This document shows, piece after piece, positions 10,664-11,590 of a stretch of 64,000 bases of DNA. This DNA comes from Octopus vulgaris (Eukaryota): contig OX597821.1 of NCBI GenBank assembly GCA_951406725.2, positions 72,230,001-72,294,000 on the forward strand, in the 5' to 3' direction. The notes under the pieces are model-generated. The model was not told the DNA's origin. It searched no databases and saw only the letters and a program-made list of their open reading frames with translations. Each line of letters opens with the position of its first letter. Positions within the stretch are counted from its first letter, which is position 1. The position numbers and the translations under genes were made by a program.

Positions 10664-11590
10664 ATGGATCAAATGGCAAATACTGAGAATTCTTTACAGG
10701 TGGAAATTGCTGATAATCAACAAACTAATGAAACTCCGATTAATGATTTACCTGAAAGCTCCAATGGAAATGCGCCACGAAAAACAGACTGGAATTTCAG
10801 CGAAGAACAAATTGTTGAGATTTTCAAGCGAAAATATCAACCTGATAACTTTACCTATGAAAACGAATTACTTTATCGTCAGAAAACAGGTATGTTTATG
10901 TTATACATTAACCGACGATTGATGTTAAGCGAATATATACTAAACATTGCCGTAGTTTATATGCACCGATTCTATATGTATAACTCCTTCCACCAGTTTA
11001 GTTATAAACTCATGGGACCCGTGTGTTTGTTTTTCGCTGCTAAATTCGATGATAAATTGCTTGCTGTTGAGCAAGTGATTGTCGAAAGTCAAACATATTT
11101 CCAACAATATCTACATTTAGAAAAAAACAAAACTACCATTAATCGGATAGCCAATGACTTTTTCCTTTATGAAGAAGCCCTTTTAGTTTGTTTAAACTTC
11201 GATTTTCGCATTACTCTACCCCAATCTCATATTATCAAAGTATGTAACATAATCAAAATCGAAGATAAATTAGTGAAAATAATTAACCAGTTTGCTACAT
11301 GCTGTCTGATTTTAACGAAGTTCTCTCTCAAATATACAGCAAAAACTATCGCATCTATATGTATACATTTGTTTATTGAATGGGGTAACTGGAAGATTCC
11401 GTTGTCTTCCCAACATAATCCATGGCATTTTTATATGGACACTTCTCTCAATGAACAATTATTGGATGAATTAGTGGTTGATTTCCTTGAGGTACTTCAC
11501 AACACAGACAAAGATTTCAAGAAACAGTTTCCCTTTTTAAACAAATCCGTGTCGCCAAGTACCACGGACAAGGCGCTGAAAACTGACTAA
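10664..11590 (+). CDS. Intronless cyclin T-like protein, 308 aa, cyclin box (two folds) only; copy 1
   Basis: Motifs match recalled cyclin T1: WNFSEEQI (WYFTREQL), ELLYRQ (ELSYRQ), NIAVVYMHRFYM (NTAIVYMHRFYM), LFFAAKFDD (LFLAAKVEE), LTKFSLKYT (LTTFSLQYT), CIHL..EWGNWKIP (CIHLACKWSNWEIP), LLDELVVDFLEVL (LLDELTHEFLQIL). Confidence 0.93.
   Translation: MDQMANTENSLQVEIADNQQTNETPINDLPESSNGNAPRKTDWNFSEEQIVEIFKRKYQPDNFTYENELLYRQKTGMFMLYINRRLMLSEYILNIAVVYMHRFYMYNSFHQFSYKLMGPVCLFFAAKFDDKLLAVEQVIVESQTYFQQYLHLEKNKTTINRIANDFFLYEEALLVCLNFDFRITLPQSHIIKVCNIIKIEDKLVKIINQFATCCLILTKFSLKYTAKTIASICIHLFIEWGNWKIPLSSQHNPWHFYMDTSLNEQLLDELVVDFLEVLHNTDKDFKKQFPFLNKSVSPSTTDKALKTD

Follow-up and report, generated by a model that had tools for sequence, protein, structure and literature searches.

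Can a cyclin T escape the inhibitor of its kinase and still serve transcription elongation? This question is raised by a tandem array of intronless cyclin T paralogues in Octopus vulgaris, carried by a stretch of 64,000 nucleotides (assembly GCA_951406725.2, contig OX597821.1, positions 72,230,001 to 72,294,000, forward strand), hereafter the window. P-TEFb (for positive transcription elongation factor b) is split among an inhibited 7SK/HEXIM pool, a BRD4 pool and a super-elongation-complex (SEC) pool. The cyclin T mutants that separate these pools have so far come from human-cell screens. An SEC-only cyclin is worth testing because SEC-bound and BRD4-bound CDK9 are reported to have separable roles in human cells (PMC7849361). 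An earlier note, made from the letters of the window, had proposed that the paralogue keeps the surface bound by the scaffold AFF4, has rewritten the groove bound by HEXIM and carries a natural Glu at the position of human V107, and had offered two readings: a 7SK/HEXIM-insensitive P-TEFb subunit, or a decoy titrating SEC scaffolds. Sequence comparison shows that the groove has indeed changed more than background divergence predicts; on the AFF face only W207, W210 and the L163/V164/W221/Y224 pocket, which reads Ile, Ile, Trp, Tyr in the paralogue, stand out as conserved. The copies in the window are as follows:

10664..11590, + strand: copy W1, an intronless cyclin T paralogue of 308 amino acids (aa), in a single-exon open reading frame (ORF) with PF00134 and PF21797 matches
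26450..27376, + strand: copy W2, intact, 308 aa, with 5 of 924 bases unlike W1
39673..40599, + strand: copy W3, intact, 308 aa, the copy type fitting the splice junctions described below
47738..48170, + strand: copy W4, 5'-truncated, with homology from about codon 166 onward

A fourth intact copy, W0, starts at Met4 just upstream of the window. Residues were mapped by HMMER alignment to human cyclin T1 chains and by a multiple sequence alignment (MSA), human numbering being taken from the PDB alignment with a fish cyclin T1 as numbering row. The canonical comparison set consisted of 90 of the 179 aligned sequences (at least 52% identity to the Octopus canonical box and at least 225 columns), after paralogues, near-duplicates, fragments and more divergent rows had been dropped. 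All 17 residue calls that had been made by eye were right. On the CDK-facing side K93=K127, E137=E170 and F146=F179 are kept and E96 becomes D130; the second fold retains L170=L203, W207=W240, W210=W243, W221=W254 and Y224=Y257; the groove changes are N43>M77, Q46>L80, D47>Y81, Q50>R84, L133>F166, Y175>N208 and F176>Q209; and V107 corresponds to E141, whose codon reads GAA. The 17 sites are invariant among the four intact copies. Canonical molluscan cyclin T does not already carry these changes: the Octopus canonical protein agrees with the human one at 16 of these 17 sites, the exception being D47, which is E, and an inherited canonical state was therefore rejected as their source. The features on which the argument rests are these:

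11042..11200, + strand: kept CDK-contact span, with K127 (11042), E170 (11171) and F179 (11198), from the MSA
11054..11056, + strand: K131, equivalent to the human Q97K mutant, from the MSA
11084..11086, + strand: E141, the V107 equivalent, with the adjoining K106 changed to V140, from the HMMER alignment and MSA
11216..11290, + strand: rewritten groove, with H152>L185, H154>Q187, T155>S188, K168>D201, D169>K202, Y175>N208 and F176>Q209, from the MSA
11381..11392, + strand: W240 and W243, the AFF4 hot spots W207 and W210, kept, from the MSA

Among the HEXIM-groove residues Y175, K168, D169, H154, Q56, N60 and T179, only N60 and T179 are kept, and the replaced groove residues are 91-100% conserved across the 90 canonical sequences. 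On the AFF surface W207/W210/W221/Y224/L203/L242 are kept, while D169, F176, K206, E211 and E246 are changed. The lists drawn up by eye had been selective, leaving out the AFF changes D169K, E211K, K206E and E246H and the CDK-face changes Q97K, R99L, T143C and G145N, as well as K168>D, at a position validated in cells as K168E.

To set these changes against the general divergence of the protein, interface sets were built from papers, independently of the alignment and as far as the accessible parts of each source give them: HEXIM1 positions from PMC4227133, BRD4 site residues from bioRxiv 2026.04.09.717428, AFF4 contacts from PMC3589825 (including Table 3) and the same bioRxiv study, and the CDK face from secondary sources (PMC11130503, PMC8648303) plus neighbouring loop residues. 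When sites are matched for conservation, 2 of 15 groove residues are retained against 6.7 expected (p=0.011). Because conserved aromatic sites are kept (14 of 17) and conserved polar ones lost (16 of 57 kept) across the whole protein, which explains much of the asymmetry seen by eye, residue-class matching was added; the depletion persisted (5.7 expected, p=0.029). With 2-3 of 15 residues kept, the paralogue has the lowest groove retention among sequences with less than 47% identity to the canonical form, the 37 non-octopod ones keeping 4-14. The three CDK contacts K93/E137/F146 are all kept against 1.3 expected (p=0.052). They are likewise retained (p=0.020), together with W207 and W210, in a second long-branch paralogue from Argonauta, whose class-matched values are p=0.064 for the groove, p=0.23 for the AFF face and p=0.21 for the CDK face (toward retention). 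As the two paralogues are identical at just 83 of 240 residues, what both keep is informative.

Escape from HEXIM is supported because Y175, K168, D169 and L133, all validated in human cells (PMC4227133, PMC4226998), are all changed and the groove is depleted beyond background; loss of HEXIM/7SK control is thus well supported by sequence. The human mutants Y175E/Y175S and K168E are reported to keep CDK9, to lose HEXIM1 and to show RNase-insensitive kinase activity (PMC4227133), in agreement with the Y175 effect cited in the earlier note. Other residues of its groove list, namely Q46, Q50 and F176, are weak evidence, since Q46A, Q50A, F176A and L170W leave HEXIM1 binding in cells unaffected (PMC4226998 Table 1). 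The paralogue is changed at the same positions as the engineered Y175 and K168E mutants, and most likely works like them, although it evolved naturally and has some 165 changes besides, many of which fall on the CDK face. By analogy with human mutagenesis at these positions, HEXIM binding would be lost. BRD4 binding would presumably be lost as well, Y175 being a reported BRD4 hot spot (bioRxiv 2026.04.09.717428), yet the BRD4 and AFF4 surfaces are said to overlap in a cryo-EM study (PMC13622488). CDK9 binding is probably retained, to judge from the contact residues only, and the complex modelling described below suggests AFF binding.

Taken together, the reading that we hold, tentatively and as a possibility rather than a likelihood, is that the paralogue is a HEXIM-insensitive, AFF-bound P-TEFb cyclin. 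It would pair with the single CDK9 and an AFF scaffold to form a pause-release kinase beyond 7SK/HEXIM sequestration and, where expressed, would steer CDK9 into SECs and out of the store held by 7SK. As no protein would then restrain it, its output would depend on transcription, on the number of copies and on whether splicing keeps or skips the box. That this happens in the germline is a guess prompted by the biology of retrogenes. If the reading is true, a natural, selected cyclin T with a replaced HEXIM/BRD4 groove and the main AFF hot spots intact would be a reagent for the SEC-only role of P-TEFb, and the locus would provide a molluscan example of elongation machinery with paralogous parts.

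Several points weigh against this reading. The interface p values are uncorrected and several sets were tried, and the six cell-validated groove positions alone are not significantly depleted (1 of 6 kept, p=0.19). The AFF face, described as kept in the earlier note, stands at background once matched for conservation and class (7 of 16 kept against 6.4 expected, p=0.46); what survives of that claim is W207 and W210, whose alanine mutants have the largest reported effects on AFF4 (58-fold and 21-fold, PMC3589825), and a weak predicted complex. Only 2 of 7 Kd-tested AFF4 residues are identical; F176, lost here, is also an AFF4 contact, and F176A is reported to lower AFF4 binding 6-fold. Table 1 of PMC4226998, where the in-cell binding of each mutant to HEXIM1, CDK9 and AFF4 is rated, yields a sharper partition, with AFF4-impairing positions kept at 6 of 7 and HEXIM1/CDK9-only positions at 1 of 9 (Fisher p=0.006), but this overstates the case because the AFF4 group is rich in buried residues, and in the Argonauta paralogue the partition is not significant (3 of 7 against 1 of 9, p=0.19). 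Retention on the CDK face is low (4 of 16 against 5.1 expected, p=0.38, conservation and class matched), and the paralogue bears T143C together with V107E and Q97K, two substitutions that in human cells cost cyclin T1 all or part of its CDK9 binding. Finally, the RNA evidence consists of low-depth contigs, two of the three splice junctions come from transcripts unable to encode the full protein, and the O. vulgaris annotation lists products of 77-87 aa that use the splice donor within the ORF described below.

The substitutions at V107 and Q97 are the starting point of the decoy reading, in which the paralogue would bind AFF scaffolds and not CDK9, like the V107E mutant, so that SEC output is dampened and the recent array raises the dose. 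The phenotype given in the earlier note was right: V107E in human cyclin T1 loses CDK9, HEXIM1 and BRD4 and keeps AFF4, and Q97K binds CDK9 and HEXIM1 weakly and AFF4 fully (PMC4226998). Both exact substitutions occur naturally in all Octopus paralogues, and none of the 90 canonical sequences has Glu at position 107, the count being 3 among all 165 non-paralogue rows. Alongside them stand K168D, L133F, C111Y, T143C, G145N and R99L, with a rewritten CDK loop; on T143/T149 the human studies disagree (PMC8648303, PMC4226998). The lack of a second CDK9 in the genome search and the copy number (four intact copies here and four in O. sinensis, against one found in O. bimaculoides) fit a decoy as well. 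What weakens the decoy branch, however, is that both long-branch paralogues retain K93/E137/F146 and that in the Argonauta protein position 107 is Ile, not Glu, and Q97K is lacking. Moreover, the surrounding helix is also rewritten (K106V, H103Q, C111Y), so the single-mutant phenotypes need not carry over; K106>V beside V107>E may be a compensating swap, and the pair V107E and Q97K offers a test of how far such phenotypes transfer to a co-evolved background. Human cyclin T1 without bound CDK9 is also reported to be rapidly degraded (PMC8648303). We regard a decoy as unlikely, and of the two readings offered in the earlier note the HEXIM-insensitive subunit has fared better.

The Argonauta protein bears on a further possibility, that the groove has been reshaped to fit a new partner, or that the protein turned to another CDK, giving the cyclin a role beyond HEXIM escape. 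This 257-aa protein, another short, divergent cyclin T, was rejected as the canonical Argonauta cyclin T; the canonical Octopus and Argonauta proteins have 238 of 246 box residues in common. The 257-aa protein clusters with the Octopus paralogues (Shimodaira-Hasegawa-like approximate likelihood ratio test 97-98, with a long-branch warning) and is their probable orthologue. The two paralogues have 28 derived residues in common, compared with 6-19 for 15 other divergent cyclin Ts, among them the derived groove residues R50, E56, L152, Q154, S155 and Q176, and in the CDK loop a retained core is surrounded by changed residues. Remodelling for a new role nevertheless appears rather unlikely: derived sites held in common are not significantly concentrated in the groove (6 of 16 against 22 of 112, p=0.10), no candidate partner was identified, and the grouping with Argonauta may reflect long-branch attraction.

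A simpler account is that a weakly constrained or rarely translated retrogene has diverged fast, the asymmetry being a by-product. The survival of aromatics and loss of polar residues described above are what it would produce, the four intact copies differ by 13 non-synonymous and 6 synonymous variants (pN/pS 0.56), box-skipping transcripts exist, and unrelated intronless paralogues (three p38 MAPKs, below) occur in the genome. On the other hand, the open frame is intact in three octopus lineages, at identities down to 80%. Between the O. sinensis and O. bimaculoides paralogues 24 of 250 box and 8 of 37 N-terminal residues differ which, divided by the published mean autosomal synonymous divergence (dS) of 0.123 (PMC10925132), gives an omega of 0.33 for the box and 0.74 for the N-terminus, rough figures from protein differences and a genome-wide dS rather than a codon model. 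Within the paralogue clade, 7 of the 63 most conserved sites vary, compared with 24 of the 102 least conserved. The box thus looks constrained, and the groove loss persists after residue-class matching; we consider generic divergence quite unlikely.

Evidence of transcription comes from four of 24 listed sequencing runs, none on record as RNA, with a contig depth of about 1-17. The splice sites concerned are these:

10889..10895, + strand: splice donor CAG/GTATGT within the ORF, after codon 75, whose use removes the whole cyclin box
36941..36976, + strand: upstream exon ending at 36970 in W3 and followed by donor GTAAGT; run X7 joins it to the acceptor that corresponds to 10306, and run X5 to the one for 10700
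41361..41415, + strand: acceptor AG at 41384-41385 with an exon from 41386, joined to the 10889 donor (run X7) and present only downstream of W3

Three loose contig ends in X5 and X7 land exactly on GT-AG sites, two others being unplaced, and indicate that the locus is transcribed; each junction is one contig; in two of them the far exon is seen for just 30 letters, and in the other it is the matched side that has just 30, one under the bridging rule. When the 10889 donor is joined to 41386 (X7), the cyclin box is lost entirely and the product is 78 aa long, as in the 77-87 aa products annotated for O. vulgaris. A contig of X5 (10700-11035) runs through the same donor unspliced, so a box-retaining RNA or precursor exists. 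No junction appeared among the 2 contigs of run X1 and the 3 of run X6. The upstream exon ends at 7919-7950, 23745-23776, 36941-36976 and 45683-45714 have an intact donor in W3 and W4 and TTAAGT in W0, W1 and W2; for this reason the copies may differ in the promoter and isoform used.

The HEXIM-insensitive reading also depends on which partners the genome holds. Genome searches scored the best candidates only, so single-locus counts are lower bounds. HEXIM was found at one locus, intronless and with an intact PYNT motif; a brake to escape from therefore exists. CDK9 has one locus with four coding exons, the N-lobe being split over exons, and the PITALRE motif, which we take as the mark of CDK9, occurs at one locus. 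A co-duplicated CDK9, raised in the earlier note, was not found in the genome search, which could miss a very divergent or spliced copy. Intronless kinases matched by CDK9 exon 4 were rejected as CDK9 copies; they are three p38 MAPK-like genes with a TGY motif (C10:83.39-83.48 Mb), recorded also in O. sinensis and O. bimaculoides. Among SEC subunits second copies were found for cyclin T, AFF and ELL only, ENL/AF9 and EAF giving one locus each and no second copy. The AFF/lilliputian genes are:

C20:53597249-53602990: AFF-A, intronless coding, 1912 aa, from the genome search
C20:18090263-18093235: AFF-B, intronless coding, 990 aa, divergent, from the genome search

The 90% cluster of AFF-A includes an orthologue of equal length from O. 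sinensis, and AFF-B carries the cyclin T-binding motif; AFF4 peptides are the only PDB entries matched by either N-terminus (best E 0.024 for AFF-A and 0.003 for AFF-B). Candidate ELL- and ENL-binding motifs picked out by eye in AFF-B found no confirmation in the PDB and are set aside. A spliced AFF gene was not found in the genome search, a candidate on C28 having been rejected as a chance match. As both AFFs are intronless, this suggests retrogene replacement or wholesale intron loss. ELL is present as a spliced gene plus an intronless 398-aa copy without the occludin domain, a truncated retrocopy. The second, divergent AFF scaffold and the ELL retrocopy are newly seen here; like the BRD4 hot spot in the lost groove and the box-skipping transcripts, they had not been anticipated by the earlier note.

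Complex prediction for the paralogue box with AFF-B residues 1-56 scored 0.41 against 0.00 for the best control, with run agreement on at least 81% of contacts and a partner pLDDT (predicted local distance difference test) of at least 55. In calibration, 51 of 78 solved pairs reached the mark, as did 2 of 108 mismatched ones; scores of 0.60 or below that reached it accounted for only 5 of the 78 solved complexes and for all 4 passing mismatches. Given these rates, and since the homologous human complex has been solved (4IMY), this weak support indicates likeness rather than binding. A wider conjecture, which we consider unlikely, is that octopods evolved a second, retroposed elongation module on a shared CDK9, with a HEXIM/BRD4-blind cyclin T, AFF-B and perhaps the ELL retrocopy, amounting to an SEC-only, 7SK-independent P-TEFb switched by copy number and box splicing.

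Paralogues of general transcription machinery are known from testis, among them BRDT and, in Drosophila, tissue-restricted TAFs. A second cyclin T/AFF/ELL set would fit the pattern reported for BRDT, although these cases concern other subunits. Closer in kind are the cyclin T-like paralogues of Microplitis mediator, Cotesia typhae and Aethina tumida, which likewise are short, consist mostly of the box and evolve fast. In Microplitis, 6 records share a single contig and show Y175>L and F176>Q, a possible parallel to the Octopus array; unlike the Octopus paralogue, Microplitis has lost W207 (W207>S) and Cotesia keeps Y175, and their tree positions are separate.

The family identity of the paralogue is clear. 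The W1 protein consists of an N-terminus of about 40 aa (low confidence) and a cyclin box at about 41-290, with Cyclin_N (PF00134) and CycT2-like_C (PF21797) marking two cyclin folds, the C-terminal one of CycT type. It matches human cyclin T1 far better than cyclin K or C (HMMER E 9e-44, against 2.5e-12 for cyclin K and 4e-4 for cyclin C), and cyclin T also comes first in Foldseek (1e-14 for cyclin T against 6e-9 for cyclin K or C). The AlphaFold2 model, built from a 50-sequence alignment, has a mean pLDDT of 84 and a template modelling (TM) score of 0.90 to cyclin T1 chain 6z45_B. In addition to this two-fold box, the paralogue has W12, K93/E137/F146 and W207/W210/W221/Y224 in common with cyclin T1/T2 (CCNT). 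It differs in being intronless, in ending about 20 aa past the box, without the C-terminal tail of about 400 aa, and in being identical to the host cyclin T at only 80 of 245 box residues (33%).

That host gene lies on contig C17, apart from the paralogue copies on C8, and has 10 exons with canonical GT-AG sites; its 667-aa product is 99.9% identical to the O. sinensis protein. Since the paralogue has no introns where this parent has 8 in the box, it is likely a retrocopy. The trees neither show nor reject descent from cephalopod cyclin T (approximately unbiased test, p-AU 0.518; long branch). Retroposition out of the Z chromosome finds no support, with the parent on C17 and the O. vulgaris Z reported as chr16 (bioRxiv 2024.12.09.627507), if contig numbers equal chromosome numbers. 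Orthologues of the paralogue occur in O. sinensis (4 records, 97%), O. bimaculoides (87%) and another octopus assembly (80%). Databases name these proteins only cyclin-T1-like or hypothetical, and no published study of the paralogue was found in the literature, the search covering sources other than subscription journals and bioRxiv supplements.

An assembly artefact is an unlikely source of the array because O. sinensis has four annotated copies on a single contig. Two further features of the array are:

8001..23800, no strand: one repeat unit of about 15.8 kb, the array period of the cyclin T paralogue
10477..10486, also 26263, 39477 and in W0, + strand: TATA-like element some 180 bases upstream of the start codon, with the same sequence in all intact copies

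Comparison of W1 (10300-11990) with W2 (26087-27780) shows promoter, ORF and 3' flank to be less than 1% different, while farther flanks differ by 3-4%, gaps included; such near-identity would point to selection or gene conversion. Beyond cyclin, Pfam matched 0 of 36 open frames of the 8001..23800 unit and the window's right end, and Rfam gave 0 matches in the 64-kb window, no search having been aimed at 7SK RNA.

Elsewhere in the genome, the intronless ELL copy (C2:101005495-101006691) lies some 2 kb upstream of exon 1 of EAF, the gene of its partner, on the same strand. An uncharacterised 387-aa open frame (C2:100986266-100987426, minus strand) lies about 18 kb upstream of this copy. Several elongation genes are intron-poor here, such as ENL/AF9, whose AHD domain ends a 669-aa open frame (C17:17130223), and CDK9 with just its 4 coding exons. 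Within the window, each repeat unit contains at least one long, degenerate microsatellite tract (5700-7000, 21500-22950, 35400-36060 and 43000-44850), from which spurious MCVY/HTYI frames arise.
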